Shown: positions 24,517 through 55,834, numbered from the stretch's first letter. The stretch is 64,000 nucleotides of DNA from Minisyncoccota bacterium (GCA_023137615.1 JAGLOS010000001.1:1067-65066); one strand, 5' to 3'. Numbers and translations: made by a program. Notes: a model not told the origin generated them from the letters alone.

Positions 24517-24580
24517 TTTTGGCGGTTATGTCACTAAAACTACTCTATACAAGGAGTCTTTACTACTTATTTGTCATGGG

Positions 24581-24678
24581 GTGCACTGCTCGCTCCACTT
24601 CGTTACGCTCCCAGCACTGTCCTTTGACAAAGCGACATAAAAACCGATGCTTTCGCATCGGTTTTTATGTCGGTCAAA
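24581..24678 (+). repeat. tRNA-flanking repeat, family R3, copy 1
   Basis: gtgcactgctcgctccacttcgttacgctcccagcac ... aaaaccgatgctttcgcatcggttttt. A related copy lies at 30490-30576. Both abut a minus-oriented tRNA 3' end. Confidence 0.6.
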
Positions 24679-24864
24679 GGGTGCCTACCCGGAATATTCA
24701 CTGCTCACTCCTTTCAGTCGTTGCGCTTTCGGAACCCACGGTTCCGAATGACCTCCTCCACGGGGGCGTTCCGCTGCCCCCGACCCCCTACGGGTTCAAA
24801 TCCGGGTAGACAACTTCTGATAACAAATAAACGACTAGCAAAAAGCTAGCCGTTTATTTGTTAT

Positions 24865-24939
24865 GGGGTGCCTACCCGGATTTGAACCGGGACTGGGGGC
24901 TCCACAAACCCCCGTGCTAACCATTACACCATAGGCACC
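24865..24939 (-). tRNA. tRNA-His(GTG)
   Basis: Cloverleaf with extra G-1 and C73 discriminator. Anticodon loop TTGTGGA. T-arm CCGGGTTCAAATCCGGG. Confidence 0.8.
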
Positions 24940-25203
24940 ATGGTTTTTTAAAAGCGGCATATGCCGCTTGTGTTATATTTTTACCACATGACAGTACTTA
25001 CCGCAAGAGTTCCTTTACATATTTTCCCAGTTGTTTTTGGCTTTATTACAAGATATAATAAAAAAAAGAAACATAAGTAACAACACCAAAAAGAACCAAA
25101 GCGACTCCGCTTAATACAACAATTAAAGCAGTGCTTTTTCATATTGTCGGTTTTTTTATTAATTATATTGCACAACATTTTTTAAATTTTGTGACAAATA
25201 TCT

Positions 25204-26184
25204 TTACATATCCCAAGTGAAACCGTTCCCAAAATGACCATATTGCGCGGTTTGGTAAAATTGCGGTTTGCGCAGATCAAGAAATTCAATAATAGCTTGC
25301 GGACGAAGATCATAACCTTTTACTTTTTCTTCTCTTCCGTCAACAAACGCAGTTGCCGCAAGCGGCTCGGGGTGTCCAATAGCGTATGCGATCTTCACCA
25401 CAGCTTCTTTCGCTCCCGCTTTTACATGATCCACGGCAATCTTGCGCGCCATGTATGCGGCGCTTCTATCTACTTTTGTTGCATCTTTTCCGGAAAAAGC
25501 GCCTCCCCCAACCGCAACACGCGGACCATACGCGTCCACTACGATCTTTCTGCCTGTGAGTCCCGCATCCGCGGCAAACCCACCTATTCTCCATTTACCG
25601 TTTGGATTTTTCATCCATGTTTTTTTAATATCGCCGTCAATATATGAGGCTATTTCTTTTTCAAAAACTTCATTCAAAACGACATCGCTTAAATCCCCAC
25701 TTTCACATAATGAAGTTATCACGTTAATGATCCTGCCCTCTTTTACTGTAACTTGCGCTTTGCCGTCGTGCCGCCCCATTGATCTTATCAATTTCCGAGC
25801 AAGTGACATCTCAAGCGGCATGAATTCCGGCGTCTCGTCGGTGGCATATCCAACCATGATACCTTGATCCCCCGCACCTTCATTGTCAACTCCTTTTTTA
25901 ATTTCATTACTTTGTCCGGAAACATAAACGGATATATCAACGTCATCTGTATATCCATTGTCTTTATATACTTGTTTAGCAATACTCTTGTAAACATTTT
26001 CTTCAATTGGCGCGTTTGTGGTGATCTCTCCTGTAAGCACAATATTGCCGTGCCCGCCAAGTGTCTCTATCGCCACTCGCGAATACGAGTCATGCTCCAA
26101 ACAAAAATCTAAAATAGCATCTGAGATTTGATCGCACACTTTGTCGGGGTGCGCCCGAGATACTGCTTCTGCTGTTTGAATCAT
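25204..26184 (-). CDS. metK: S-adenosylmethionine synthetase (short form)
   Basis: 326 aa. GHPDKVCDQISDA, GAGDQG and GGGAFSGKD motifs. Confidence 0.85.
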   Translation of the reverse strand: MIQTAEAVSRAHPDKVCDQISDAILDFCLEHDSYSRVAIETLGGHGNIVLTGEITTNAPIEENVYKSIAKQVYKDNGYTDDVDISVYVSGQSNEIKKGVDNEGAGDQGIMVGYATDETPEFMPLEMSLARKLIRSMGRHDGKAQVTVKEGRIINVITSLCESGDLSDVVLNEVFEKEIASYIDGDIKKTWMKNPNGKWRIGGFAADAGLTGRKIVVDAYGPRVAVGGGAFSGKDATKVDRSAAYMARKIAVDHVKAGAKEAVVKIAYAIGHPEPLAATAFVDGREEKVKGYDLRPQAIIEFLDLRKPQFYQTAQYGHFGNGFTWDM

Positions 26185-26210
26185 ATTTGTAACGTAATTA
26201 TTTAATAAAC

Positions 26211-26278
26211 AAAAAACTTTCCTCGTGAGGGAAAGATACGTTTAAGTCTGCTAGACAATAGTATCTTTCCCAAAAGGG
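26211..26278 (-). promoter_or_regulatory. metK leader terminator/antiterminator (attenuator-type expression platform)
   Basis: On the metK strand: gggaaagatac (21 nt) gtatctttccc tcac gaggaaag tttttt. The 11-bp antiterminator stem and the ctttcc/ggaaag terminator stem share ctttccc. The T-run ends about 26 nt before the ATG. Confidence 0.5.
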
Positions 26279-26385
26279 TACGAATGGAGCACCTTCCAAT
26301 TTGTGTCACCAAAAAGTGGTTGCTGGACGGATCATAGAGTCGTATCTCTTCCCGCCGCTCGTGATATTTTTCTATATTCGATTAT

Positions 26386-26410
26386 AAATACATACTATCA
26401 GTATGTATTT
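26386..26410. promoter_or_regulatory. 11-3-11 palindrome adjacent to putative metK -10 box
   Basis: aaatacatact atc agtatgtattt lies immediately next to TATAAT (minus strand) about 200 nt upstream of the metK start. Confidence 0.4.
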
Positions 26411-26567
26411 AGGATAACAAGATTGACAAGAAAGTAGTTACAAAAAAATACGCTTGACATATTTTGTGCTGAGCTAGTAGGGAGTTAGTCGCGAACACTT
26501 AGTTTTTTGAATATTTCATTTCGTTTCACTCATAAAATATTCTTAAAAGGTCTTGCGGAATGGGTCC

Positions 26568-26692
26568 CAGCCCCTTCTCCTCCACTTCGTTACAGAGCGG
26601 GGACCCGCTGCTCCGTCTTTCAACTCCCGCTCTGGGCTACATAATACAGCAACCCCGAAGCGCTGCTTCAGGGTTGGTATTTTGTGCTGAGT
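26568..26692 (+). repeat. 121-bp direct repeat unit B, copy 1
   Basis: Identical to the 26776-26895 copy. Contains an inverted copy of the tRNA-Leu 3' end (tcaactcccgctctgggc) and the ctccacttcgttac motif shared with family R3. Confidence 0.75.
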
Positions 26693-26775
26693 TGGTAGGG
26701 AGCTGGTCACGAATCACTAAGCTTTTTGTTCGTCTTTCAGACTCCAAAAAACTAAGTGTTCGCGACCCCGACTCG

Positions 26776-26895
26776 CAGCCCCTTCTCCTCCACTTCGTTA
26801 CAGAGCGGGGACCCGCTGCTCCGTCTTTCAACTCCCGCTCTGGGCTACATAATACAGCAACCCCGAAGCGCTGCTTCAGGGTTGGTATTTTGTGC
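26776..26895 (+). repeat. 121-bp direct repeat unit B, copy 2
   Basis: 100 percent identical to copy 1. Runs directly into the 3' end of tRNA-Leu. Confidence 0.75.
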
Positions 26896-26977
26896 CCAGA
26901 GCGGGAGTTGAACCCGCACGGTCGCAATGACCACTAGCCCCTCAAGCTAGCGTGTATACCAGTTTCACCACCTGGGC
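26893..26977 (-). tRNA. tRNA-Leu(GAG)
   Basis: 85 nt with long variable arm. Anticodon loop TTGAGGG. T-arm GCGGGTTCAACTCCCGC. Confidence 0.8.
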
Positions 26978-27047
26978 AATATTAGGATTCTACCAAAAAT
27001 ATGCAAAAAAGAAAGAGCCGGTATTACCGGCTCTTTCTTTTTTAAAA

Positions 27048-27587
27048 TTATTTTTCTTCTTTTTTCTCTTCCTTTGGTTTTTCCTCAATTTTTTCTTCGG
27101 TCTTTTCTTCCTTTTCTCTTTTGTCCGCAGGAGCTTCGGTGATAGACGTTGCTTCAGATATTGTATCACCTTCTGTTTGTTTTTCCTCCTCTTTGGACTC
27201 TTCTACTGAAATTTCTTCTACGACAGGAGCCGACATGATCTTTCGCATCTTTCGACGAATCTCACGAGCAACCTTCTCGCGAATATAATAAAGCTTTGCC
27301 CGTCGAACTTTTGAGCGTTTTACTATTTCAACTTTATCAATGGAAGGAGAATAAATTGGGAATATCTTCTCAACCCCCACTCCGCTCATAACCTTTCGTA
27401 CCGTGAAAGTCCCACCTGTTTCTTTTCCATGTTTTACCGCAAGTACCACGCCCTCAAATTTTTGAATACGTATCTTGCCCTTTTCCTGAATTTTCAAATG
27501 AACCCGAACAGTGTCTCCTGACCGGATGTCTAATTTCTTTCGCTCCTCAATATTTACCGGCGACAATGTGATTGTTGTATTTTCCAT
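27048..27587 (-). CDS. rplS: 50S ribosomal protein L19 with K/E-rich C-terminal extension
   Basis: 179 aa. L19 core ([32 protein letters not shown]...RRAKLYYIR) plus about 60 aa of EEK repeats. Confidence 0.85.
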
Positions 27588-27656
27588 ATAATCATTAAAA
27601 AATGTGAGTATTTACAATACCCACTAAAATAAGTACTTAGTAATCTACCACACAAA

Positions 27657-28376
27657 TTATAACTGTGCAATGGCTTTTTCAAAATCTTGAGGAAATGGAG
27701 CTTCGACAGTAATATCTTCTCCTTCTCGTGTGGAAAAACTAACAGATCTGGCATGGAGAGCAAGGCGTTCAAATTCAAGCAAACACTCACGTTTTGGGGC
27801 GTAGAGACTATCACAAACAATAGGATGATGTATTGCCTTAAGATGTACTCGTAATTGATGAGTCCGTCCTGTTTTCAGATGTAACTCTAAATACGCAACG
27901 TTTTCGCCACGTGCTAATACTTTATACTCAGTTACCGCTTCCCTTTTTAGCCCACGACTACCCGGCTGCGCGCTCCACTGTCGAAAATCCTTTTTGCTTT
28001 TCCCGATCGGTTTATCAATGACGCCCTCTTTTTCTTTTATATTTCCATACACAAAGGCATTATATATTTTTTTTATCCTCCTTTTCTGAAATTGTTCTTT
28101 AAGATATAGATATGTCTCTTGATCTTTTGCAATCACAAGCGCACCTGATGTGTCTCGATCGAGTCGATGCACGATGCCGGGGCGATAGATCACTTTCCCC
28201 TTCTGGCTTTCCCAAGGTTCCCCAACCTCTTTCATGTCCGGATACTTCTCAACAAGAATATCCGCAAGCGTCCTCTCATTTGACCGTCCGTCGCCATGTA
28301 CCATTAAACCGGTCGGTTTATTCACCGCCAGTATGTGCTCGTCTTCATACACAATGTTGAGTTGTTCAATAAACAT
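27657..28376 (-). CDS. RluA-family 23S rRNA/tRNA pseudouridine synthase
   Basis: 239 aa. Catalytic HRLDRDTSGALVIAKD motif. Confidence 0.85.
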   Translation of the reverse strand: MFIEQLNIVYEDEHILAVNKPTGLMVHGDGRSNERTLADILVEKYPDMKEVGEPWESQKGKVIYRPGIVHRLDRDTSGALVIAKDQETYLYLKEQFQKRRIKKIYNAFVYGNIKEKEGVIDKPIGKSKKDFRQWSAQPGSRGLKREAVTEYKVLARGENVAYLELHLKTGRTHQLRVHLKAIHHPIVCDSLYAPKRECLLEFERLALHARSVSFSTREGEDITVEAPFPQDFEKAIAQL

Positions 28377-28411
28377 AAATCAAAACACGTCTCCTGTAGA
28401 CTTGTTTTACT

Positions 28412-28717
28412 CTATCTCATTTCCTTACTCTTTTCCACTCTTTGTGTTTCTTGTTCAACAAGACCCTGTTCAAACGAGAGTACTTTTTGCCAAGTGTCTG
28501 AATTGTTTTGTATCAACGCCTCCTTACGCTGTTCAAGCAATCGTGCAACAAGTACCAAATTACTCTCGTCCTCCTTACACAAATTCAAAATTTCAGAGAC
28601 CTCTTCGTCGCTCAGACCGGAAAAAAATATGTGCAAATCCTCTTTTACTTCTTCCGGCAGATTCGCATTTGTTGTTAAAATATGAAGTTGTTCTAATTCT
28701 TCGCTCATATGATTCAT
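28412..28717 (-). CDS. hypothetical acidic protein
   Basis: 101 aa, helical and acidic, no motif. Confidence 0.35.
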   Translation of the reverse strand: MNHMSEELEQLHILTTNANLPEEVKEDLHIFFSGLSDEEVSEILNLCKEDESNLVLVARLLEQRKEALIQNNSDTWQKVLSFEQGLVEQETQRVEKSKEMR

Positions 28718-28811
28718 TTTTCTTTTCTCTTACCCCCGTATTCTCCAATAATAACTTTAAATTACTCCTCAGTAAACGCGGTTTTCCACACAAATGTTTG
28801 TCGAATAAAAT

Positions 28812-29525
28812 TTATCCCCCTTTTCTCCTTTTACGCTCCTTATACTTTTCAACGATCTCCATAAATTCTTTTTTTGTAAATGAAGGCCAGCATACTTTCG
28901 GAAAAAAGAGCTCACTATAAACCGCCTGCCAAGACAAAAAGTTAGAAAGCCTTTTTTCGCCGCTCGTACGGATAATAAGATCTGGGTCAGGCATGTCTTT
29001 TGTCCACAGATATTTAGAAAAATCTTGTTCTTTCATGGATTCAATTTCTTCGGGTGTTTTTTCACGAGAGATCTTCTTTACCGCGGAGAGTATCTCTGCT
29101 CGACCACCATATGAGACGGCAACATATAATGTGCATAAACCTTCTTCTGTTTCTTTTTCAAGCTTTTTGATCCCTTTTTGCATATCAGAAGCAAGGCGTT
29201 CTATTTGTCCAACAAATTTTATTCTCATATTTTCTTCTTTAAGCCAACTCATTTCTTTAAAAACAAGATTTCGAAAAAGATCCATCAGATAATCTATTTC
29301 TTTTTCGCTTCTATTCCAATTTTCCGTAGAAAAAGCGTAAACAATAATGTGATGAACGTCTATTTTTTTACACCACAAAGAGATCTCCTTGAGTTTTCTG
29401 TACCCTTTTCTGTGTCCTTCAAGAGTTGGGAGTCCGCGCTTTTTAGCCCAACGCCTATTACCATCCATGATTATTCCCACACACTGAGGAATATTTGCTT
29501 TCTCCGGCTGATCATTTTTTACCAT
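28812..29525 (-). CDS. uppS: undecaprenyl-diphosphate synthase (cis-prenyltransferase)
   Basis: 237 aa. HIGIIMDGNRRWAKKRGL and ENWNR, RTSGE motifs. Confidence 0.9.
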   Translation of the reverse strand: MVKNDQPEKANIPQCVGIIMDGNRRWAKKRGLPTLEGHRKGYRKLKEISLWCKKIDVHHIIVYAFSTENWNRSEKEIDYLMDLFRNLVFKEMSWLKEENMRIKFVGQIERLASDMQKGIKKLEKETEEGLCTLYVAVSYGGRAEILSAVKKISREKTPEEIESMKEQDFSKYLWTKDMPDPDLIIRTSGEKRLSNFLSWQAVYSELFFPKVCWPSFTKKEFMEIVEKYKERKRRKGG

Positions 29526-29568
29526 AAACTATTTTGAGTTACTATAAATAAAAGCACTTCGTCTTATG

Positions 29569-29644
29569 TTATCTCCTCGGCTCGGAAGTAAAAAGTTTCG
29601 TTTTACTTCACTTTTTACTTCTCTCGCTCTACGTCGCTAATAAT
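29569..29644 (+). repeat. family R1 partial copy C
   Basis: ctcctcggctcggaagtaaaaagtttcgttttacttcactttttacttctctcgctctacgtcgctaataa. Overlaps the last codons and stop of acyP. Confidence 0.65.
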
Positions 29645-29914: not shown

Positions 29915-30088
29915 TTATTATATAACATAATAAGAATATGCAACGTTACAGATATCCAGAGTGCTTGAAAAAAGTCAAAAAGTGCGGTATTCTAGAAAAA
30001 CAAATGGGACAAAGTGTTCTTGATTATAAGTTTAATAAAATAAAAATATGGGTAGAGTAGGACCATAATGTAATTAATAAAACATGAT

Positions 30089-30162
30089 GGGCGATTAGCT
30101 CAGTTGGCTAGAGCAACCCGTTTACACCGGGTAGGTCGGGGGTTCAAATCCCTCATCGCCCA
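30089..30162 (+). tRNA. tRNA-Val(TAC)
   Basis: 74-nt cloverleaf. Anticodon loop TTTACAC. T-arm GGGGGTTCAAATCCCTC. Confidence 0.85.
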
Positions 30163-30164
30163 CA

Positions 30165-30207: not shown

Positions 30208-30399
30208 CTGTGACGATAGGAAGTGAACTGCTTCACTTCCGTGGGGATTTGAACGGCGGAGTATGTTGGTAAACACCGAGCAAAGCTTGGCGTTTACCAA
30301 CAGCGAGCCGCGTCCAGCGATACTTATTAGATTTCGATTCGTCTTTGACGAAAAAGAAATATAATTAGTAATCGTGGGACGAATCCCTCATCGCCCACA
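30208..30399 (+). repeat. tRNA-linked repeat family R2, copy 1 (ends in a duplicate of the tRNA-Val 3' end)
   Basis: Shares ggatttgaacggcggag, gcgagccgcgtccagcgaYacttaYtagatttcga and aaatataRttagtRatYgtgggac with 55470-55695. Its last 18 bp (aatccctcatcgcccaca) are a direct repeat of the tRNA-Val 3' end 220 bp upstream. Confidence 0.7.
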
Positions 30400-30489
30400 G
30401 CCGCCAAAACAGCACTTATCAGTGCTGTTTTGTTTTGCAACTTAGTAACAGCAACGAAAAAAAGATGCTTCGCAATCTATTTAAGTATA

Positions 30490-30576
30490 AGTGCACTGCT
30501 CACTCCTCTTCGTCCCATTCCCAGCACGACTTACGTAACAACAAAAAAACCGATGCTTTCGCATCGGTTTTTTGTT
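30490..30576 (+). repeat. family R3 copy 2, abutting tRNA-Arg 3' end
   Basis: gtgcactgctcactcctcttcgtcccattcccagcac ... aaaaaccgatgctttcgcatcggttttt. Confidence 0.6.
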
Positions 30577-30648
30577 GGTTACTAAGTGCCCCCGGCAGGA
30601 ATCGAACCTGCAATAAGAGCTTAGAAGGCTCTCGTTATATCCATTTAA
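30577..30648 (-). tRNA. tRNA-Arg(TCT)
   Basis: 72 nt. Anticodon loop CTTCTAA. T-arm GCAGGTTCGATTCCTGC. Acceptor GCCCCTG/CGGGGGC. Confidence 0.8.
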
Positions 30649-30791
30649 CTACAGGGGCATATTTACTCTATCATATTATCAAAAGACCGTTCACTCGTCA
30701 CAAAACTTATTACAATGCGTCTGATAATCAAACACTCTGTTTGTCCGCTGTCAGCTTGTATCATTCCGAGAGTGACGGGCTTCATGGTTCT

Positions 30792-30816
30792 GCGTTATAT
30801 CCATTTAACTACAGGG
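30792..30816 (-). repeat. 25-bp direct duplicate of tRNA-Arg(TCT) 5' half
   Basis: cgttatatccatttaactacagggg repeats positions 30623-30647 of the gene 143 bp away. Confidence 0.7.
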
Positions 30817-30870
30817 GATAGTACTCAAACCACACAAGCCTCTTCATGGTCGTTCAAAAATATAGCAGTA

Positions 30871-31353: not shown

Positions 31354-31365
31354 AATATAGATCAC

Positions 31366-36344: not shown

Positions 36345-38039
36345 CTACACATCTAGCAACTGCAGCACTTTTCCTTTATCTTCCACCGCCCATAAAAAAG
36401 TTGCCAATCTCGGACCGGCGTTTTTCCCGATGAGTAAATTATATACCATCTGAAAAAACCGTTTTTGCCTTTTTATGTTTTCTTTCATGTCTAGCTCTTC
36501 TTTTTTGACAATACCATAAACCAGTTCGTTTAATTCAGGTATTGTTCTGTTTGGATTATCTTTTAATTCGCTTTTTAACTTTCTAACATGCCCTAATTCT
36601 TCCTCAGATAATGTTTCTATATATTCAGTATTTTTCTCTTTTTCTAATTTTATTATCTCCTCGCGATTATAAGTTTCTAACCAATTTTTAGCTTTTACGA
36701 GACGTTCTTTTATACTTTTTTCATCATAATCTTCTTCTTGCGCTTTCAATAACTCAATCATTTTATCTTTATCCCATTGAACAATTTGCCCAAAACCAAC
36801 CGCCTGTCTAAACGGAAGAGGTTTTTTGTATTCACCTTCCCTAGAAACACCACTAATTTTCAATGACTGTATATCAAAATCACTCAGGGGTTCTTCTCCT
36901 GTTTTCATTTCTTCAACTTTTCTGTCAAATTCTGCGTACTGTCTGTAAACTTCACTATCAAAAGCCAGCGAAAAAGTCTTGTTGGGCTCGGTTCTGAAAT
37001 AAAGCCACTTCAAAAGTTCCGGGGAATATATTTCCAACAATTTTCCGGGTGAAACACTGTTTCCTTTTGAACCGGACATTTTGTCTCCAAGTCCCCTAAT
37101 CCCTACGAAATCATATCCTTGATAGACAGGTGGCTCAACACAAAAAACCTCTTTTGCAATAACAGTAGAAGTATCGTAACTTCCTCCTGGAGTAGAGTGA
37201 TCTTTCCCGCCAGGTTCAAAACTGACATCTTCCGCCCCCCACCTCATTGCCCAATCAACTTTCCATGCCAATTTTACAATTCTGACCTTAGTAATATCAA
37301 TTGTTTCAGTTTTCCCGGAATCAAAACATTTGTAAGTTATTTTTTTATCTCCATCATAATCAATAACTTTAGTATTATCTTTTCCGGAAAAGCGAGAATA
37401 GACAGCAATTGGATAATAGTTTTTTATATATTCATCATCAACGATATTTTTATTCTCCTTTCCTTTGTCTGTCATGAAAGAAAGCAAAATTTTTGCTATT
37501 TTCTCTCTATTTTTTAGGGCTTCTATTATTTTTTCATCATATCTTCCAGATTTATGCTCGTTGGTTTGGTATATGTATTCTATCTCTATGTCCAAATCAG
37601 TCATTGCTTTCTCAAATTCTTCTTCTTGATATTTGGCATAAGACTTGTCTGTGCCATCTGGTGAAGGTATTCCTGTTAGAGGAAATCCAATATATTTTTC
37701 AAAACTTGGGTCTATACCCTGCGGAACTTTCCTAAACCTATCAAAATCATCCCAAGAAAAGATCATTCTGGCTTTCTTTCCTCTCTTTTTTAATTCTTCA
37801 AAAACCGCATAAGAGGTAACAATATCTCTAAAATTTCCAAAGTGGATAGTGCCCGATGGACTTATTCCCGAAGCGCACACATACTCATCTTTGTCTGGAA
37901 ATTTCTCCAACACTTTATCGGTATAAGCACTAGCCCAATGAAGTTTGTTTTCTAAACTTTCATCCTCATTTTTAACCCTTTCTTCTTTTTCTGAATTATC
38001 AGTTTTAAATTTTTTCATATTATCTCCAAGTTTTTGCAT
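36345..38039 (-). CDS. lysK: lysyl-tRNA synthetase, class I
   Basis: 564 aa. HIGH-type HFGNFRD and KMSKS-type DKMSGSKG motifs of class I LysRS. Confidence 0.85.
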   Translation of the reverse strand: MQKLGDNMKKFKTDNSEKEERVKNEDESLENKLHWASAYTDKVLEKFPDKDEYVCASGISPSGTIHFGNFRDIVTSYAVFEELKKRGKKARMIFSWDDFDRFRKVPQGIDPSFEKYIGFPLTGIPSPDGTDKSYAKYQEEEFEKAMTDLDIEIEYIYQTNEHKSGRYDEKIIEALKNREKIAKILLSFMTDKGKENKNIVDDEYIKNYYPIAVYSRFSGKDNTKVIDYDGDKKITYKCFDSGKTETIDITKVRIVKLAWKVDWAMRWGAEDVSFEPGGKDHSTPGGSYDTSTVIAKEVFCVEPPVYQGYDFVGIRGLGDKMSGSKGNSVSPGKLLEIYSPELLKWLYFRTEPNKTFSLAFDSEVYRQYAEFDRKVEEMKTGEEPLSDFDIQSLKISGVSREGEYKKPLPFRQAVGFGQIVQWDKDKMIELLKAQEEDYDEKSIKERLVKAKNWLETYNREEIIKLEKEKNTEYIETLSEEELGHVRKLKSELKDNPNRTIPELNELVYGIVKKEELDMKENIKRQKRFFQMVYNLLIGKNAGPRLATFLWAVEDKGKVLQLLDV

Positions 38040-38248: not shown

Positions 38249-38265
38249 TGGAGAGATGGCTGAGT
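38249..38265 (+). repeat. duplicate of tRNA-Ser 5' end
   Basis: ggagagatggctgagtg 114 bp upstream of the intact gene. A degenerate 3'-end-like fragment lies at 38652-38677. Confidence 0.6.
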
Positions 38266-38378
38266 GTTCAATGAGATCCTGCGAGAGGTGGTAACATCGA
38301 GTAGTTGATCGAATTAATGATTGATACTCGAAGCTACTCAAGAATAAATAAAGTTCTTACAATAAATCAATATAACAT

Positions 38379-38465
38379 GGAGAGATGGCTGAGTGGTCGA
38401 AGGCGACGGTCTTGAAAACCGTTGAGGGTTTACGCCCTCCGTGGGTTCGAATCCCACTCTCTCCG
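38379..38465 (+). tRNA. tRNA-Ser(TGA)
   Basis: 87 nt. Anticodon loop CTTGAAA. Long variable arm. T-arm GTGGGTTCGAATCCCAC. Confidence 0.85.
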
Positions 38466-39162
38466 CATAAAACGTTCAACCCTAATGCGACACAGCATTG
38501 GGGTTGTTACGTTTTACCAGAAGGAGTGGGGTTCGAAAAAAGTCTCGTGCGAAGCCTAACGTAACGAAGTGAAGTCAGAACGAGACGGCGAGGTCACGAG
38601 TTCTTAGAGAAAACAAGTCCGCAGGACGTAGTTTGAACTTAGAACTGGGGACCGAATCCCAATCTCTCCGCAAACAGTAACTTCACGTTCCATACTCAAA
38701 TACCCAAAAAGTCTTTGTGGCAACAATAGACGACTGGTCGATAAACTTAAATAGTCTATCTACATCATAAGTGTAAACAACAGTCCCTGGAGAGGAACCC
38801 GTTGTTGCTGTGTATGGGGTTCCTTCACAATTAGCTTCTAAGTAAAATATTTGATATTAAAACGATTGTTAGTAAGCTCGGAAAACTTGTAAAAGGAAAA
38901 TAAGACTCTTAGCGCGTACTATTACCTATGATACGAGCACAAACAAAATACTCTTGGTAAAAAATACAGAAGCAAAATTTTGGTAAGCCCTTGGTGGTGG
39001 GTGGGAGTATGAGAAAGTTAAAGTATATAATTTATATTATCCCCGTTTATTTAAGTTTTTTACTGGTGTTTATATATTTTACATTTATACTTATAAATAA
39101 GACAAAACTGGGGATTTGTTGATTATTAGTTTTTATCAGTTTTAATAATCAATAACTTTAAT

Positions 39163-50014: not shown

Positions 50015-50086
50015 CCTCTCGTCGTTCAACGGATAGGACATAGCTTTGCGGAAGCTAAAATGTAGGTTCGATTCCTGCCGAGAGGA
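50015..50086 (+). tRNA. candidate tRNA-Arg(GCG)
   Basis: 72 nt. Acceptor CCTCTCG/CGAGAGG (7 bp perfect). D-arm GTTC-AACGGATA-GGAC. Anticodon arm TAGCT-TTGCGGA-AGCTA. T-arm GTAGG-TTCGATT-CCTGC. Discriminator A. Unusual C1-G72. Confidence 0.55.
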
Positions 50087-50112
50087 CAACTGAAGAAAGT
50101 GAGGGGGGGGAA

Positions 50113-50131
50113 ATTCCTGCCGAGAGGACAA
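50113..50131 (+). repeat. 19-bp direct duplicate of the candidate tRNA-Arg(GCG) 3' end
   Basis: attcctgccgagaggacaa repeats 50071-50089 after a 23-bp spacer. Confidence 0.65.
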
Positions 50132-50256
50132 ACAGAGACTTCCCGCGCTGTCAGCGCGGAGCGATCGGAGAACAACGAATGCGATCCGACACTTTCAACG
50201 ATTGAAAAAGGTGCAAAAGCGCTTAGTGTTGGCGTTGAGGATTTGATGGAATAATT

Positions 50257-51447
50257 ATGTCGCAAATTTCAAAACAAAAGATCAAAGCAAATATTTGGAA
50301 AACTCAAGTATTCAAAATTGTGCAAAATCTTGCATTTTTCACACCTGTCGCTGTCTTATTTTGGCAGGAAAACGGACTGTCTCTTACCGAAATAATGATT
50401 TTGCAATCACTGTTTTCTGTTGCGCTTGTGTTGCTTGAGATTCCGTCAGGATATTTTGCTGACGTGTTCGGTCGCAGACCGTCACTCATTCTTGCTTCTG
50501 TATTTTATCTTGTCGCCGCAATTGGATACAGCTTGGGACACGACTTTGGCACATTCCTTATTGCTGAGTTGCTTTGGGCTGTTGCATGTGCATTTATTTC
50601 CGGCGCGGACTCCGCACTTGTTTATGACTCTTTGCAAAATGTTGGGGAAGAAAAAAATTATAAACGAATTTGGGGCAGTATTTCGTTTTGGGCCTTTTTG
50701 GCAGTTGCGTTTGGTGGAATAGTTGGCGGTTGGATTGGCAGTATAAACTTGCGATGGACATGGTACGCAATGATCCCAACTTTTGCTCTTTTAATTCCTA
50801 TCGCCTTGAGTTTGCAAGAGCCACACAGACACAGGCGCGTTGTCAAAAAGGGTTACATGTTGGAATTGCTAAAAACGATCAAGAGTATTTTTACCAACAA
50901 CCTAAAATTACGTTGGATCATAATTTACAGCGCAGTGATTCTCACTTTCAATCAAGCGGCTTTATGGCTCTATCAACCGTACATGAAAGAAACCGGGCTT
51001 GATATTGTATATTTTGGAATCGCATTTGCTTCATTCAACGTTGTCGCTGCTATCGGATCAAAATACGCCCACTTGTTTGAGAAACTTTTGGGAATGAAAA
51101 GGGTGCTCATTGCATTACCGATTTTTATATCAACGGCATATTTTTTGATGGGTAACTTCGCAATTGTTCTCGGATTTACTTTTGCATTTCTACAACAATT
51201 CGTACGTGGTGTAAAAGGACCAATCATTACCGATCACATAAATAAACTTACTCCTTCCGATATGCGCGCAACGATATTATCCGCCGAGGGATTTGTTGGT
51301 CGACTTGGTTACGCCGCTGTTATTCCGATTGCCGGCTGGGTTGCGGATGTTTACACACTTCAACAAGCATTCAATATCTTAGGGGTCACAACATTGGTTG
51401 TAAGCGGATTTGTTTTGCTTGTTTTACACAGACAGAAGATAATTTAA
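50257..51447 (+). CDS. MFS transporter
   Basis: 396 aa, 12 TM. D-R/K-x-G-R-like motif in loop 2-3 (ADVFGRRPS). Confidence 0.8.
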   Translation: MSQISKQKIKANIWKTQVFKIVQNLAFFTPVAVLFWQENGLSLTEIMILQSLFSVALVLLEIPSGYFADVFGRRPSLILASVFYLVAAIGYSLGHDFGTFLIAELLWAVACAFISGADSALVYDSLQNVGEEKNYKRIWGSISFWAFLAVAFGGIVGGWIGSINLRWTWYAMIPTFALLIPIALSLQEPHRHRRVVKKGYMLELLKTIKSIFTNNLKLRWIIIYSAVILTFNQAALWLYQPYMKETGLDIVYFGIAFASFNVVAAIGSKYAHLFEKLLGMKRVLIALPIFISTAYFLMGNFAIVLGFTFAFLQQFVRGVKGPIITDHINKLTPSDMRATILSAEGFVGRLGYAAVIPIAGWVADVYTLQQAFNILGVTTLVVSGFVLLVLHRQKII

Positions 51448-51604
51448 TTATCAACAAAAAAGCAAATACTACTACTTAAAACAAGAGAGGTAACTACTGT
51501 CGTGTATAAGCGGTGGGTAAAACCTGTTGTGTGATAATTGACAAATATCCTGTATCAATTAGAACTAATGTAATTATAAGTACCTTAAAATAAATTATAT
51601 AAAT

Positions 51605-52054
51605 ATGAAAAAACATAAAAAAGTTATTTTTCTGGATATTGATGGAGTTCTCAATACTGGAGGATCAAACCATATCCATGGTCACGGGACTGCTATGGAT
51701 AAAAAGTGCGTTGAGGTGTTGAGAAAAATTGTGGAAGAATTTAATGCTGTGATCGTTATATCATCAGCGTGGAGAATCGGTCCCGGAATTCTAAGAATAA
51801 AAAAGGGGTTAAGTTGGGTTGGTTGGGATAATCCGCCCATCATTGGAAAAACTCCCAACCTTAATCTTTTGAAAGAAAGACGAGGAAAAGAGATCCAACA
51901 TTGGCTCTCCCATAATCCTACAGAATCATATATAATAATCGAGGATGAGCCTTGCGACTTATTGAAAGAACAATTCCCTTTTCTTGTACAACCAAGTTCT
52001 ACTGATGGTTTACAAGAAAAGCATCTTCAGCAAATACGCAATATGTGGAAATAA
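51605..52054 (+). CDS. HAD-superfamily phosphatase-like protein
   Basis: 149 aa. N-terminal FLDIDGVL motif I. Small cap-less HAD, polynucleotide 3'-phosphatase-like. Confidence 0.55.
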   Translation: MKKHKKVIFLDIDGVLNTGGSNHIHGHGTAMDKKCVEVLRKIVEEFNAVIVISSAWRIGPGILRIKKGLSWVGWDNPPIIGKTPNLNLLKERRGKEIQHWLSHNPTESYIIIEDEPCDLLKEQFPFLVQPSSTDGLQEKHLQQIRNMWK

Positions 52055-52080
52055 CAAAAAACCGCCTTTCGGCGGTTTTT

Positions 52081-52370
52081 TTATTAGCGACGTAGAGCGA
52101 GCGGAATGTAAAAGTGGAGCGAAACGCAACTTTTACATTTCCAAGCCGAGGATCTAATATCGGATAAACCCGTCTGCCGGCAGGCGGGTACTCCGTCGGC
52201 TTGCTGCGGGAAAATGTGAGCAAAACGAATTCAAAATTGAGTCCAGAGTGAGAAGCGAATACTTGGAGCTTCGCAAGACTCATTGAGAGCTTTTATGAGC
52301 AAAGCGAAATAAAAGATCCAATGAGTGGACAGAACCTGTAAGGTTTGCTCTGGGGTTTAATACCTGTTAT
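52081..52370 (-). repeat. MITE-like repeat family R1, copy B (inverted, extended)
   Basis: Reverse complement of copy A, with the same termini (ttattagcgacgtagagcgagcgg ... tttaatacctgttatt). Carries two internal insertions of about 25 and about 100 bp relative to copy A. Confidence 0.7.
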
Positions 52371-52387
52371 TTTTCAGTTTCTAAAAA

Positions 52388-52657
52388 TTATTTTGCAACC
52401 ACTTTCCGAATCGATCTTACCAGTCGGGATTTTTTTCGAGCTGCATTATTTTTCTTGATGACCCCGCCTTTTACGGCTTTATCGATCGCTTTATATGTTT
52501 TTGAAAGCAACTCTTCCGCGCTCTTTGAGTCCTTCTTCTTTACAAGATCTTTTACTTCCTTTATCGTGTTTTTCATTACTCGTTTTCGACGTTCGTTAAA
52601 AACTCTCTTTCGAAGAGATGCCTCGTGTGCTTTCTTTGCTCCTTTTGTAATTGCCAT
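52388..52657 (-). CDS. rpsT: 30S ribosomal protein S20
   Basis: 89 aa, basic and helical. AITKGAKKAHEASLRKRVFNERRK. Confidence 0.85.
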   Translation of the reverse strand: MAITKGAKKAHEASLRKRVFNERRKRVMKNTIKEVKDLVKKKDSKSAEELLSKTYKAIDKAVKGGVIKKNNAARKKSRLVRSIRKVVAK

Positions 52658-52732
52658 GATTTCAAGAGTATACCGTATATTATGAAAAAAGCAAGAGTTT
52701 CAGAACTCGCTAATATCTTGTATTATTAACTT

Positions 52733-53314
52733 ATGATAGGATATCTCACGGGAAAGATCATCTATAATGATGAAAAACATATCATCTTGGATGTAAATGA
52801 TGTCGGATACAAAATATACGTGTCTATGGACACATTAAGCTGTCTTTCGACAGAAAAAGAGATCTCTCTTTGGATACATACCGTAGTACGTGAAGATACG
52901 CTGGATCTTTACGGCTTCAACACAGGACAAGAACTTTCGTTCTTCAAACTGGTTATTGGAGTATCGGGTATTGGACCAAAGGGGGCTCTTGGTGTCATGG
53001 ATATTGCACCGGTAGAAACACTCACTTCTGCAATTGCAGCAGGTGACACGTCGTACCTTACCAAAGTGTCCGGGGTTGGTAAAAAGATCGCTGAGAAGAT
53101 CGTGCTTGAGCTCAGAGACAAGGTTGACACAACAGGAACGGCTACGGAAGAAACGGGCGTAATACGCCATGAAGACCTCGATGTTCTCGAAGCCCTTAAG
53201 TCTCTCGGTTATCGTGAACACGAAGCAAGGGAAGCGGTCAAAAACCTCTCAAAAAACGTCGCCGGCACCAGTCAAAAAATAACCGAGGCACTAAAACTAT
53301 TAAGCAATGATTAG
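52733..53314 (+). CDS. ruvA: Holliday junction branch-migration protein RuvA
   Basis: 193 aa. N-terminal OB (MIGYLTGKI), HhH motifs (GVSGIGPKGAL..), C-terminal domain III. Confidence 0.85.
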   Translation: MIGYLTGKIIYNDEKHIILDVNDVGYKIYVSMDTLSCLSTEKEISLWIHTVVREDTLDLYGFNTGQELSFFKLVIGVSGIGPKGALGVMDIAPVETLTSAIAAGDTSYLTKVSGVGKKIAEKIVLELRDKVDTTGTATEETGVIRHEDLDVLEALKSLGYREHEAREAVKNLSKNVAGTSQKITEALKLLSND

Positions 53315-54581
53315 CATGGAATTCATTTTGCGAATAACAAAAAAGTTAATTCCGAATTTTATTTTTTCGGCATTACAACCGGTATATCATTATCTTTTTG
53401 CATTCTGCAGCGCTGTTCGCTTCGGTTCCCCCTCCCGAAAGATCTTTGTAGTAGGAGTGACCGGTACCAAAGGCAAATCAAGCACCACCGAGATCATCAA
53501 CGCACTGCTTGAAGGTGCGGGATACAAAACTGCGATGGTAAATGGTATTCGTTTTAAGGTTGGTAACGATTCCATACCAAACAAACTCAAGATGACTATG
53601 CCAGGACGAATGCTTATTCAGCAATATATTAAAAAAGCCGTTGCCGCTAAATGCGATTATTTTATTTTGGAAATGACTTCAGAGGGAGCGAAGCAGTTTC
53701 GCCATAAATTTTTAAATCTTGACACTCTTATTTTCACAAACATATCACCGGAGCATATAGAATCCCACGGCTCGTATGAAAAATATCTACAGGCAAAACT
53801 CTCTATCGCGCAAGAGCTAAAAAACTCTTGCAAAAGAAAAACTACTGTCATTGCAAACATCGATGATAAAGAGGGTGAAAAATTTCTTGCGGCAGGCATG
53901 GGTAAAAAAATATCTTTTTCTTTAAATGATCTTATCTCTTTCAAATTAAAAGATAACGGTATTGATCTCGTTTACATGGGTGAAAAATATTCTTCTCCGC
54001 TTTTGGGAAAATTCAATCTTTATAATATTCTCGCCGCAATGACTTTTGCAAAAAGTATCGACGTTTCAAACAAAGAAACAAGAGAATCTCTGAAAAATTT
54101 TCCCGGTATTCGAGGACGTGTTGAAAAAGTAAAGGCAGGGCAAGATTTTGACGTAGTAGTTGACTATGCTCACACCGCTGATTCACTCCGGCAATTTTAC
54201 GGCGCTTTCGAAGGGAAAAGAAAGATTTGTGTTCTAGGCTCATGCGGAGGTGGACGCGACAACTGGAAACGTCCTGATATGGGCGCGGTGGCTGACACTT
54301 TTTGTGACACGATAATCCTCGCCAACGAAGACCCTTACGATGAAGACCCGATGCAAATAATAAACGATGTCGCCGGTGGAATTAAAAACCATAAGCCAAT
54401 TATTACTTTAGACCGACGCAAAGCTATCGCGCGCGCTCTTGGAGAAGCCCGCGTCGGGGATGCGGTCCTCATCACCGGCAAAGGCACTGACCCATATATA
54501 ATGGAAGCAAACGGTAAAAAGATTCAATGGGACGATGCGACTGTAGCAAGAGAGGAGTTGGGGAAGTTCTTAAATTTCTAA
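53307..54581 (+). CDS. murE: Mur ligase family protein, MurE-like (lacks N-terminal domain)
   Basis: 424 aa. P-loop VVGVTGTKGKSST, GKFNLYNILAAM and DYAHTADSL motifs of MurE-type ligases. Overlaps ruvA by 8 bp. Confidence 0.65.
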   Translation: MISMEFILRITKKLIPNFIFSALQPVYHYLFAFCSAVRFGSPSRKIFVVGVTGTKGKSSTTEIINALLEGAGYKTAMVNGIRFKVGNDSIPNKLKMTMPGRMLIQQYIKKAVAAKCDYFILEMTSEGAKQFRHKFLNLDTLIFTNISPEHIESHGSYEKYLQAKLSIAQELKNSCKRKTTVIANIDDKEGEKFLAAGMGKKISFSLNDLISFKLKDNGIDLVYMGEKYSSPLLGKFNLYNILAAMTFAKSIDVSNKETRESLKNFPGIRGRVEKVKAGQDFDVVVDYAHTADSLRQFYGAFEGKRKICVLGSCGGGRDNWKRPDMGAVADTFCDTIILANEDPYDEDPMQIINDVAGGIKNHKPIITLDRRKAIARALGEARVGDAVLITGKGTDPYIMEANGKKIQWDDATVAREELGKFLNF

Positions 54582-55045
54582 CTATCTAAAATTCTAAACA
54601 ATGCGATCCCCGCTGTCACTGAAACATTCAACGATTCCTTTTCCCCTTTCATCGGTACCTCCGCGATGATGTCACATTTATCTAAAACTTCCTTTTCAAT
54701 ACCATCGGGTTCATTTCCAAAAACAAAAGCTATCTTTCCTTCTACCTTGATCTCTTTATAATCTACAGAATTTTCATTCTGCTCTATAGCAACCACTTTA
54801 AACCCCTCTTTCTGAAGTTTTGGTATTAAATTTTTTATATCTTCTACATATTCCCAATTTACTGACTTCTCTGCACCAAGTGCCACCTTCGCAAGGTCCG
54901 ACCTTGCAATATTAAAACGATCTACCGGCTGTGGAGTATACCCGCACAAAACTATTTCATCTATCCCCGCCGCATCACACGTGCGGAAGATCGAGCCGAC
55001 ATTATAGACACTTCGAACATTATAAAGAATTACTTTTGTTTGCAT
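54578..55045 (-). CDS. SpoU/TrmH-family RNA 2'-O-methyltransferase (TrmL-like)
   Basis: 155 aa SPOUT fold. NVGSIFRTCDAAG and FVFGNEPDGI motifs. Confidence 0.8.
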   Translation of the reverse strand: MQTKVILYNVRSVYNVGSIFRTCDAAGIDEIVLCGYTPQPVDRFNIARSDLAKVALGAEKSVNWEYVEDIKNLIPKLQKEGFKVVAIEQNENSVDYKEIKVEGKIAFVFGNEPDGIEKEVLDKCDIIAEVPMKGEKESLNVSVTAGIALFRILDS

Positions 55046-55166
55046 ATTTCACAACAATATCAGCAAACAACACACTCCACAACCTCTTGTTTTTTCACTC
55101 TTTTGTGGTATTATCGTTATGTTAAACAACTCCCGAAAGGGATTTTTTAACATTAGCTTTTAATAT

Positions 55167-55239
55167 CCGCCCATAGCTCAGTTGGTAGAGCAGTTGCCTT
55201 TTAAGCAAACGGTCGTAGGTTCAAGTCCTACTGGGCGGA
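55167..55239 (+). tRNA. tRNA-Lys(TTT)
   Basis: 73 nt. Acceptor CCGCCCA/TGGGCGG. Anticodon loop CTTTTAA. T-arm GTAGGTTCAAGTCCTAC. Confidence 0.8.
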
Positions 55240-55242
55240 CAA

Positions 55243-55285
55243 GCGCAAAACAAAAGCACCCGTTTAGGGTGCTTTTGTTTTAGCA
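55243..55285 (+). terminator. terminator hairpin after tRNA-Lys
   Basis: gcgcaaaacaaaagcacccgtttagggtgcttttgttttagc. Confidence 0.6.
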
Positions 55286-55469
55286 AGCAAACTGCTTTGC
55301 TTGCGACGCTTGTCCGAGGCGGAACCATAATTTTTCTGTAATGAAATGGAAGAAAAATAGGTGAGCCGGGGTCGCGAGCACTTAGCAGATTTGAATCTGA
55401 GTTTACGAAGATGCGACATTGTTTTCTTATGAGTGAAACGAATTAGAAAACAAGAAGTGCCCTTGTGGT

Positions 55470-55695
55470 GAAAAATATGCTTAGTGACTTGTGACGACAA
55501 TGGATCTGAACGGCGGAGCATGGGTCCCTGCCTGAAACGAAGTGTAAGGTAGGGCTGCGAGCCGCGTCCAGCGACACTTACTAGATTTCGAGTGAAGCGG
55601 AGAAATATAGTTAGTGATTGTGGGACAAGTCCTGTGTTTATCTTTAAATTCGAGCCTTGCGAGAACAAAAAATATGCTTAGTGACTTGTGACGAC
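55470..55695 (+). repeat. tRNA-linked repeat family R2, copy 2, flanked by 27-bp direct repeats
   Basis: The core shares three blocks with 30208-30399. It is flanked by aaaaatatgcttagtgacttgtgacgac at 55472-55498 and again at 55668-55694. Confidence 0.7.
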
Positions 55696-55834
55696 TGTAA
55701 ATCAGTAAACCGGAGGTTTTCCTTGTTTTCCCAACAGAACTTGTGACAAAGTTCTATAAATATTTCTGTCTCTTATAAATTTAAACGTTTTTGCAAAACC
55801 AACACAAGCTATTATTTTCTGTTATCATATACCC

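Follow-up and report, generated by a model that had tools for sequence, protein, structure and literature searches.

Why do the tRNA genes of one bacterial contig lie next to fragments of themselves? In a 64,000-nt stretch from a Minisyncoccota bacterium (GCA_023137615.1, JAGLOS010000001.1:1067-65066; the whole stretch is called the window here), a sequence-only reading had described six of seven tRNA genes as shadowed by partial copies of their own ends, and had proposed either small non-autonomous elements that target tRNA genes or scars of serial integration. The analysis reported here indicates that these duplicates probably mark a superfamily of non-coding, non-autonomous insertion elements of about 100 to 230 nt, whose target in Patescibacteria is the 3' part of tRNA genes. 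The elements share a conserved architecture with covarying, strand-specific stems, are associated with tRNA 3' ends to which their arms are matched, are polymorphic between related genomes and have no associated gene.

ARAGORN and Rfam agreed on seven tRNA genes in the window, His, Leu(gag), Val(tac), Arg(tct), Ser(tga), Arg(gcg) and Lys(ttt), and each was searched for maximal exact matches on both strands. Six of the seven had exact 15- to 25-nt copies of their own ends at distances of 26 to 255 nt, and every duplicate listed in the earlier reading was recovered, some with slightly different lengths or distances. The 3' end of tRNA-Val recurs in direct orientation 219 nt downstream (30382-30398; AATCCCTCATCGCCCAC(A), 17 nt in the match search and 18 with the next base, compared with 18 bp at 220 bp in the earlier reading). 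A direct 25-nt copy of the 5' half of tRNA-Arg(tct) lies 135 nt upstream (30793-30817; earlier placed 143 bp away). For tRNA-His, a direct 15-nt copy of the 3' end was found at the distance of 171 nt given before (TCCGGGTAGGCACCC, 24679-24693), together with a further, inverted copy of 17 nt at 55 nt (24793-24809). The 3' end of tRNA-Leu occurs twice in inverted orientation (TTCAACTCCCGCTCTGGGC, 19 nt; 26619-26637 and 26827-26845), within two 123-nt repeats that are 99% identical (18 nt and 121 bp in the earlier reading). Both of the copies described for tRNA-Ser were found, 113 nt upstream a 17-mer from the 5' end (38250-38266) and downstream a 3' copy in degenerate form, the distal copy of the Ser insert (CGAATCCCAATCTCTCCGCA, 38653-38672), and at tRNA-Arg(gcg) a direct 17-nt copy of the 3' end lies beyond a 25-nt spacer (50113-50129; earlier 19 bp after 23 bp). 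tRNA-Lys had only a degenerate copy of 8 nt.

By chance, any one 17-mer would turn up about 7e-6 times in 128 kb (two strands), and background matches to the same tRNAs elsewhere in the window are only 10 to 12 nt long; the tRNA-end copies are therefore far beyond chance. Assembly artefacts, which the earlier reading had raised as a possible source of the duplicates, could be ruled out because the same sequences are present in independent assemblies and the same architecture in dozens of other genomes. The genome to which the window belongs is one of Candidatus Pacebacteria (Patescibacteria). The independent assemblies of the same strain are 99.85 to 100% identical and contain the same repeats. 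Contigs of two of them (GCA_030634645.1 contig 4 and a Logan contig) end at 55208 and 55559, inside tRNA-Lys and its elements, as expected of multi-copy repeats. The tRNA genes next to the inserts are complete according to Rfam and ARAGORN, and their scores are normal.

The best-defined family of inserts, D1/D2, lies behind tRNA-Val, tRNA-Lys, tRNA-Leu and probably tRNA-Ser in the window (Table 1). Its plan comprises, in order, the tRNA 3' end, a loop that often holds a terminator hairpin, a split antisense arm, a core that contains P3 and the long hairpin P4 and has GGGAC at its end, and the tRNA end once more in sense orientation. The antisense copy covers tRNA positions 53 to 75 and is interrupted at the acceptor/T-stem junction by a small hairpin (P2), and the second sense copy runs from position 57 in the T-loop to two bases beyond the discriminator. 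The elements are gene-less, and the inserts range from 25 to 230 nt. At the Val locus, the D1 element matched a covariance model of the family (R1, described below) with 158.6 bits (E 5.5e-33), its antisense arm was detected in the exact-match search as an 11-nt inverted match to the tRNA, and the distal repeat is probably the displaced original 3' end. The inverted copies at the Leu, His and Val genes are the integral antisense arm of these inserts and no separate oddity.

A 19-nt word from the core was scanned against species-representative genomes and returned 39 loci. About half of these were chance matches in GC-rich coding sequence (actinobacteria and similar), and the remaining ~20 all came from Patescibacteria (Saccharibacteria, Campbellbacteria, Paceibacterota, Parcubacteria and unclassified lineages), every one with the same layout behind a tRNA. 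A metagenome scan added 38 loci. The covariance model R1, built from an alignment of 18 copies (A1), gave 34 matches in the window and the first loci and 59 in the second set, overall about 90 copies in about 55 loci. Of the 34 first-set matches, 31 follow a tRNA on the same strand, either at a distance of at most 50 nt or as members of a tandem series; two of the three exceptions are at locus edges, and the second set showed the same placement behind same-strand tRNAs. Nearly all copies are therefore directly downstream of a same-strand tRNA. The repeat families that the sequence-only reading had named (R2, R3 and unit B) are largely subfamilies of one superfamily.

The targets comprise at least 14 tRNA specificities, among them Val, Lys, Leu, Pro, Ser, Thr, Trp, Glu, Tyr, Phe, Arg, Gly and Cys. 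The direct repeat is an exact match of 7 to 24 nt to the copy's own tRNA, always starting with (C)GAATCC in the T-loop and ending at discriminator +2, and both antisense blocks likewise match the copy's own tRNA. The complete genome CP011215.1 also shows the identical architecture. A subfamily, D2, has the core GAGTCGGGGTCGCGARYACTTAG...CTTAGTRAYTYGTGAC and includes the Leu units and the first Lys element of the window as well as copies in the loci L085, L103 and L104. Tandem arrays of two to three near-identical D elements behind one tRNA, each unit ending with a tRNA-end copy, were found in L031/L082 (2770-3360), L071 (12269-12634) and L100 (225-934). In the genome represented by L035/L046, the D element is 88% identical to that of the window over 171 nt; the proteins are only 30 to 50% identical.

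RNAalifold predicted 36 pairs, with compensatory changes in 16 of them. The arm pairings were added to this predicted structure, which was then tested on the 18 copies of A1. Paired cells amounted to 83%, compared to 38 to 44% when the partners were slid by 1 to 3 columns, and the covariation score was 0.335, a value reached by none of 500 shuffles, compared to 0.10 to 0.145 for the slid partners. The 9-bp stem P2 showed covariation at eight of its nine pairs; the base of P4 is nearly invariant, and D2 keeps P4 by compensatory changes. G.U (or G.T) pairs exist only on the tRNA-sense strand, for example that of columns 134-192 in 12 of the 18 copies. The fold of the Val tRNA together with its element (z = -14.4 compared to shuffles) pairs the sense arm with the antisense arm, and no D copy lacks either arm or the loop. 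Among 54 elements, the hairpin-tip sequence CGAAG occurred 46 times and CTTCG once, and GCGAAGC occurred 17 times and its complement once. Tips of the GCGAAGC/CGAAG kind are known as very stable DNA mini-hairpins, the heptamer GCGAAGC as an exceptionally stable one. The strand bias of CGAAG indicates that one strand is the structured strand.

Relatives of the window were obtained through the flanking MetK and undecaprenyl-diphosphate synthase genes, and tRNA-Val(tac) beside the acylphosphatase gene is orthologous in all relatives compared. In L063 (MetK 86% and other proteins 69 to 79% identical), the site is empty, with the gene's own terminator directly after the tRNA. The window, L084, L085 and L088 carry one D1 each, with different variable hairpins, and L103 and L104 (synthase 83 to 84% identical) carry D2 followed by D1, the D1 of L103 containing a nested 58-nt mini-insert and that of L104 being truncated. 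By protein identity, L063 is nearer to the window than L084, L085 and L088, and further from it than L103 and L104 (prenyltransferase 73%, compared to 83 to 84%). tRNA-Leu(gag) and tRNA-His are also bare in L063, tRNA-His is bare in L064, and tRNA-Arg(tct) of L103 has neither the 5' duplication nor the 'A' element that accompany it in the window (Table 1). The comparison of orthologous tRNA loci called for by the earlier reading therefore revealed presence/absence polymorphism, with empty, single, double and nested states at Val, and its term 'serial' integration agrees with the nested and tandem copies. The loop terminator of the window D1 (term2) is that of the D1 in L104, where it also precedes the antisense arm, and the terminator after the distal repeat of the window is the one found inside the D2 loop of L103 and L104. 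These terminator positions fit successive insertions at the T-loop junction, with loss of units by direct-repeat recombination. Separately, a small island with GmrSD, a HEPN protein and a large serine recombinase lies downstream of the element-free tRNA-His of L063 (7954-11844).

The remaining inserts of the window vary in how closely they follow the D plan. At the Lys locus, where a third partial copy is present at 55668-55715, the first element contains a nested mini-hairpin insert of ~58 nt and matches the model weakly (55272-55396, E 0.07-0.2), and the core of the nested D1 is 94% identical to the Val core over 35 nt. The parts of each Leu unit are a loop resembling a terminator, an antisense arm (at 26827-26845 and at 26619-26637 in the two units, + coordinates), a core and a Leu 3' copy that has decayed, with a model match at 26681-26868 (44.2 bits, E 5e-8). 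The Ser insert was aligned by eye, and its model match (38510-38677, correct strand; 11 bits, E 1.2) is below significance; its assignment to the D family is tentative. The His insert keeps the D plan with a body, or core, of another family. A further type, the 'A' element, lies behind the first His element and behind tRNA-Arg(tct). R1 gave no match to the His or the 'A' elements, and neither has a counterpart among the other loci compared; a kinship with the D superfamily is suggested by the layout in common only and is unproven. The insert behind tRNA-Arg(gcg) may be the remnant of an internally deleted element.

Two duplications affect the 5' side, at tRNA-Ser and tRNA-Arg(tct), and both inserts end in the promoter-like sequence just ahead of the working gene (in the Arg(tct) insert, TTGTGA-17-GATAAT at 30703-30675). 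The Ser unit is present twice in tandem in L085, and the Arg(tct) unit is absent from L103. These 5'-side duplicates resemble a mirror image of the other inserts, with the 5' end and the promoter as the parts replaced.

Table 1. Positions of the tRNA-associated inserts and their parts in the window
Feature	Coordinates	Strand	Details
tRNA-Val(tac)	30089..30164	+	Proximal sense arm S at 30146-30164 (position 57 to discriminator +2)
Val, loop of hairpin P0	30165..30207	+	Perfect terminator-like hairpin 'term2' between sense and antisense arms
Val, antisense arm S'	30208..30254	+	Acceptor part CTGTGACGATAGG; P2 at 30219-30240 (loop ACTGCT); T-stem part GTGGGGATTTGAAC
Val, D1 core	30255..30380	+	GGCGGAGTATG, variable hairpin, GCGAGCCGCGTCCAGCGATACTTA, long hairpin P4, TTAGTAATCGTGGGAC
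Val, distal direct repeat	30381..30399	+	GAATCCCTCATCGCCCACA; then terminator 'term1' at 30400-30437
D2-type element behind tRNA-Lys (55167-55240)	55241..55495	+	Terminator hairpin, P2-like hairpin (loop ACTGCT), end CTTAGTGACTTGTGAC
D1 element nested at right junction of first Lys element	55496..55640	+	115.5 bits; then decayed Lys 3' copy AAGTCCTGTG...
Two tandem ~210-nt D2-type units and third partial junction behind tRNA-Leu(gag) (26892-26977)	26460..26891	-	
Ser insert behind tRNA-Ser(tga) (38379-38466)	38467..38672	+	Loop hairpin, antisense arm 38516-38537, divergent core ending CTGGGGAC
His insert behind tRNA-His (24864-24938)	24679..24863	-	Terminator loop, antisense arm 24784-24812 (+ coordinates), body, distal copy TCCGGGTAGGCACCC
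'A' element behind first His element	24576..24678	-	Terminator hairpin AAAACCGATGCGAAAGCATCGGTTTT, ~45-nt body ending GAGCAGT, 9-nt His-end copy GCACCCCAT
'A' element behind tRNA-Arg(tct) (30586-30658)	30487..30585	-	77-97% identical to His copy; ends with 7-nt Arg-end copy GCACTTA
Remnant behind tRNA-Arg(gcg) (50015-50087)	50088..50131	+	25-nt ACTGAAGAAAGTGAGGGGGGGGAA, then 17-19-nt direct 3'-end copy
Ser 5'-side duplication	38250..38378	+	Displaced positions 1-17 and 112-nt insert with promoter-like sequence
Arg(tct) 5'-side duplication	30659..30817	-	Displaced 25-nt 5'-half copy (30793-30817) and 134-nt insert with promoter-like site

Two further observations concern the elements and the ends of their tRNA genes. 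A hairpin mini-element of ~58 nt (GCGAC...AAGTGCCCTTGTGGTG) nests within other elements, at ~55405-55468 in the window, three times in L062 (568-893), and in L103 (~3995-4035) and L104 (~1320-1385), where in both cases it splits the D1 antisense arm between TTTG and AAC. CCA is not encoded in the tRNA genes of the window or at most loci of the Candidate Phyla Radiation (CPR); the discriminator is very often followed by CA (Val ACA, Lys ACA, Arg(gcg) ACA, Ser GCA, Leu ACA), also at element-free genes (Val in L063, Cys in L037), and the direct repeats stop exactly after this CA.

Each D element is flanked by two sense copies of the tRNA end, and nucleotide differences between them bear on which one is original. 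Position 57 is A in the proximal copy of the window and of L088, with the matching T in the antisense arm; the distal copy has G57, as do the empty site of L063 and L085. Over all copies, some rows of which are out of register, the antisense arm sided with the proximal copy at 37 of the positions where the two differ, with the distal copy at 6 and with neither at 19. At each of the clean single differences (two copies in L056, and L079, L048, L077 and L089), it is the proximal copy that the arm agrees with. Most simply, both arms would arrive together with the element and the distal repeat would be the native end in displaced form, so that the junction would fall between positions 56 and 57. 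An enzyme-made target-site duplication is unlikely, because the antisense arm is also target-specific and the proximal/distal difference pairs the proximal copy with this arm.

In the mechanism we propose, insertion would take place between T-loop positions 56 and 57. The sense arm S (position 57 to discriminator +2) would become the working 3' end of the gene, and the original 3' end would be pushed downstream and stay as the 'shadow' direct repeat. The antisense arm S' is complementary to positions 53 to 75 and would hence reach across the insertion point. Repeated insertion at the same junction, either of the live tRNA or of a displaced copy, would produce nested and tandem arrays, and direct-repeat recombination would remove an element precisely and restore the plain gene. 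In a single strand, S and S' could fold to a hairpin imitating the target, pairing with it, or both. Movement would occur in trans by an enzyme encoded elsewhere, most likely through a single-stranded DNA intermediate. A single strand of DNA is favoured because the order of sense arm, loop, antisense arm, body and displaced half-site is that of the product of folded-strand integration. A DNA route is also favoured by the position of several copies, Val included, behind terminator hairpins, and by the loop motif, which is a mini-hairpin of DNA type. The same product would be left if the insertion were of the IS200/IS605-like 'peel and paste' kind, 3' of GTTC.

Consistent with non-autonomy, Pfam scans detected no integrase, transposase, HUH or reverse transcriptase domain in 50 open reading frames (ORFs) of the window, and its gene calls include no recombinase, transposase or reverse transcriptase. 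The recurrent families among 143 ORFs located at most 3 kb from elements at the ~55 loci were housekeeping genes, with no recombinase, transposase or reverse transcriptase among them. The earlier statement that no integrase is present therefore holds for the window ORFs and for the recurrent neighbours. A 16-nt core word scanned against 2.9 million viral contigs (IMG/VR) gave chance matches in coding sequence only and no true match. Rfam returned only tRNAs, terminator-like noise and a sub-threshold SAM (S-adenosylmethionine) riboswitch, whether the query was the whole window (gathering threshold, then E <= 5) or just the Val element (E <= 10), and matched the elements to no family at any threshold. 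Full-text literature searches gave no description of these elements, the nearest paper being one on group I introns in Patescibacteria tRNAs. Among the recurrent neighbours, UPF0102 (YraN-like, nuclease fold; 4 of the 143 ORFs) is the only nuclease-like family, which may be plain synteny.

Several known kinds of sequence were considered and rejected. The motif GGATTYGAAC and the tRNA-like 3' end had suggested a transfer-messenger RNA (tmRNA) or permuted tmRNA, but ARAGORN and Rfam were negative and the copies mimic many tRNAs. For group I or II introns there was no model match, the tRNA is intact, and a reading of GAGCCGCG as resembling domain 5 (D5) fails to fold as D5; the group I introns at position 35/36 of Patescibacteria tRNAs occupy another site and are another element. 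The TIGR (tandem interspaced guide RNA) arrays of CPR and phages consist of alternating 8- to 12-nt repeats and 9-nt spacers beside a Tas (Nop-domain) gene (PMC12045711). Their unit size and layout are unrelated, and no Tas gene was found in the window ORFs or among the recurrent neighbours. A phage attP was rejected, as scans of viral contigs gave chance coding-sequence matches or nothing. A retroviral-type primer-binding site was rejected as well, since the antisense arm complements genomic sequence (discriminator + CA...) and not a CCA-tailed tRNA. Finally, L058, tried as an ORF-carrying autonomous copy, is merely a truncation.

Direct repeats of tRNA 3' ends that begin in the T-loop are the classic attachment-site (att) signature of integration into tRNA genes. 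The elements resemble tRNA-targeting islands, prophages, integrative and conjugative elements and the integrase-less cis-mobilizable elements (CIMEs) in their insertion into the 3' part, the crossover in the T-loop, the replacement 3' end that keeps the gene intact and the displaced direct repeat, and, like islands and CIMEs, they leave arrays of partial tRNA ends after repeated events. Islands, however, are kilobases long and contain genes, whereas the elements described here are gene-less units of 100 to 230 nt with a covarying hairpin core. Unlike islands, they also carry an obligatory antisense copy of the target, and one core family serves at least 14 tRNA species. A second likeness is to sites that recombine as folded single strands, namely attP(+) of the CTX phage, which is used by Xer and integrates as a folded single strand (PMC3442271), and the integron attC site (PMC4792948). 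There too, a pair of inverted arms within a single strand can imitate the target duplex by folding, in a strand-specific manner, and both arms are kept after integration, giving the same order of parts. The targets of these sites are dif or attI, however, whereas the present elements target the T-loop, their arms vary with the tRNA, and their single-strandedness is inferred, the strand-specific G.T/G.U pairs and the CGAAG tips being indirect hints.

IS200/IS605 elements and their derivatives (palindrome-associated transposable elements, PATEs, and repetitive extragenic palindromes with their associated tyrosine transposases, REP/RAYT) have subterminal hairpins on one strand, insert 3' of a short sequence, choose the target by pairing and excise precisely. 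Similarly, the elements here have no terminal inverted repeats as such and no fixed target duplication, and they would insert 3' of GTTC: all copies abut the GGTTC of the T-loop, and GTTC elsewhere in the genome is unused. Pairing in IS200/IS605 involves 4 nt, whereas it would involve ~23 nt here and tRNA genes only, and no Y1 transposase is linked. Group I and II introns are likewise compact structured elements, present in tRNA genes of the same phylum, with an internal complement to both sides of the insertion (internal guide sequence, IGS, with P1-P10; exon- and intron-binding sequences, EBS/IBS). In contrast to introns, the element lies behind an intact tRNA, the '3' exon' is duplicated, and the core is far too small for a group I or II fold. 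ARAGORN and Rfam found complete tRNAs upstream of every element, leaving the mature tRNA uninterrupted, and no Intron_gpI match was obtained at the gathering threshold or at E <= 10. The tRNA group I introns of Patescibacteria sit at position 35/36 (10.1101/2025.07.03.662931).

Miniature inverted-repeat transposable elements (MITEs) have constant terminal inverted repeats and a target duplication of fixed length, whereas here each tRNA has its own version of the terminal arms, conservation is limited to subterminal parts, and the repeats of 7 to 24 nt always begin at the same tRNA position. Like the elements described here, Rickettsia palindromic elements, Neisseria Correia elements and mitochondrial GC clusters or double-hairpin elements are tiny, gene-less, hairpin-forming and nested, are abundant in small genomes and lead to breaks in assemblies. 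Such palindromic elements use many kinds of site and have constant termini; the elements here use one position in tRNA genes, and their termini are copied from the target. By analogy, the elements would resemble in function a tRNA-integrating island reduced to its att region and in shape the folded single-strand sites, with a guide arm that recalls introns. They lack defining features of the island, MITE, group I intron, tmRNA and TIGR classes, and are apparently undescribed.

Of the two explanations in the sequence-only reading, small non-autonomous tRNA-targeting elements are supported by the fixed boundaries, the covarying structure and the occurrence at many tRNAs and in many CPR genomes. 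The other, integration scars, stands as far as serial insertion is concerned, given the nested and tandem copies, but the inserts are neither random scars nor remnants of large islands. Direct repeats starting in the T-loop are what islands or prophages with an integrase would leave, and the serine-recombinase/defence island of L063 lies near tRNA-His. Deletion leftovers of such islands are nevertheless a very unlikely source, since random deletion would not produce the same boundaries and the same ~180-nt unit in ~90 copies, the core has no true match in the viral contigs, and no integrase recurs next to the copies. That there is no common element, and that the duplicates stem from local slippage or duplication, from chance matches or from assembly artefacts, is scarcely credible: a plain tandem duplication does exist at the Leu locus and contigs of other assemblies break in these repeats, but the exact 15- to 25-mers and the identical architecture in independent assemblies and in CP011215.1 speak against it. 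A structured RNA or cis-element that serves the host, for instance as a decoy resembling a tRNA, as a module for 3' processing or termination or as a regulator, and whose copies come and go through ordinary duplication and deletion, would suit the very strong conservation of the core across CPR classes, the covarying helices, the constant position and orientation behind tRNAs and the terminator that the loop often supplies. We consider it unlikely, however, as a close relative is without the element at three orthologous tRNAs and shows no visible replacement, copies may be tandem, nested, truncated or decayed, and the same tRNA holds different subfamilies in different orders. In addition, the antisense arm would compete with tRNA folding, and the identity of elements between distant genomes is far above that of host proteins.

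The manner of movement is a separate matter. RNA-mediated mobility, in which the element would be co-transcribed with the tRNA, the antisense arm would act as an intron-like guide that pairs across positions 53 to 75 of the target and a ribozyme, a reverse transcriptase acting in trans, or both would insert the copy, appears unlikely. In the corresponding tRNA-like fold, the antisense arm and the distal copy would form an acceptor/T-stem mimic, P2 would replace the anticodon domain, and the core would be a large insertion in the T-loop. It would explain why the antisense arm crosses the insertion point, as IGS and EBS pairings do, and why G.U pairs and covariation are found on the transcribed strand; in many copies tRNA and element are separated by just a short loop that has no terminator, the conservation of the core is like that of an RNA with a catalytic or protein-binding role, and self-splicing group I introns do occur in Patescibacteria tRNA genes (10.1101/2025.07.03.662931). 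On the other hand, Rfam gave no intron or ribozyme match, also when the element was searched by itself with E up to 10, the helices of the core number only two or three, and splicing yields no product with an uninterrupted tRNA and a duplicated 'exon'. Moreover, several copies, Val included, lie behind a strong terminator-like hairpin, and no reverse transcriptase was found among the window ORFs or recurrent neighbours. A possible, if doubtful, alternative is an element guided by nucleic acid, whose 23-nt antisense arm would be an exchangeable guide that pairs with the tRNA-sense strand and directs the ~130-nt core to the junction between positions 56 and 57. The core would then be either a small ribozyme or a place where a conserved host enzyme docks. 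The sense arm would be made as the complement of the guide, so that a tRNA that is hit stays functional, and a swap of arms would retarget the core to any tRNA, giving one core family for at least 14 tRNA species. Insertion elements moved in trans through single-stranded DNA remain our preferred reading, and several points weigh against it. No enzyme and no free or circular form was seen; both arms must come to match more than 13 tRNAs, conceivably through modular recombination between elements, gene conversion from the distal repeat with later correction of the quasi-palindrome or true re-templating, and a mismatched insertion would break an essential tRNA. The case for DNA over RNA is indirect (loop terminators in several copies, CGAAG/GCGAAGC tips). 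The assignment of the distal copy as the original relies on few nucleotide differences, and decay of an unselected distal copy would, at least in part, also yield agreement between antisense arm and proximal copy. The His and 'A' elements are missed by the D model, the duplications of the latter are short (7 to 9 nt), and the GCAC within them may be the element's own. Finally, about 40 nt of the core are near-invariant across CPR classes, which is unusual for selfish DNA and would suit a functional RNA or ribozyme.

If the preferred reading is correct, Patescibacteria carry an abundant and seemingly undescribed class of tRNA-gene parasites, and a dense, nested load of selfish DNA at essential genes is compatible with streamlined genomes of ~1 Mb. 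Assemblies of CPR genomes are fragmented by the elements, and pseudo-ends at tRNA loci can mislead the annotation of tRNAs and att sites. Sense and antisense copies of the target around a core that is conserved superphylum-wide point to either single-strand recombination by a hairpin mimic at the universal T-loop or targeting guided by pairing, and either mechanism would be relevant to mobile DNA and programmable insertion.

A second repeat family, 'E', is not adjacent to tRNA genes and occurs in the window at 18378-18581, 29563-29643 and 52074-52391. It has the core CTCGCTCTACGTCGCTAATAA and hairpins with GGAGCGAARCG loops, and the acylphosphatase ORF takes its final codons from one copy. Over a stretch of 88 nt, 'E' is 96.6% identical to L046, whose proteins are 30 to 50% identical to those of the window, and 'E' pieces are inserted within a D1 element in L084. 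The class I lysyl-tRNA synthetase gene (tRNA-synt_1f, E 7e-109; 36345-38039, - strand) lies immediately upstream of the tRNA-Ser locus. The sub-threshold SAM riboswitch match (26258-26370, - strand; 33.8 bits compared to a gathering threshold of 44.4, E 9e-4) is directly upstream of metK (25204-26184), with the tRNA-Leu elements just upstream of it, and is probably a real, divergent S-box.

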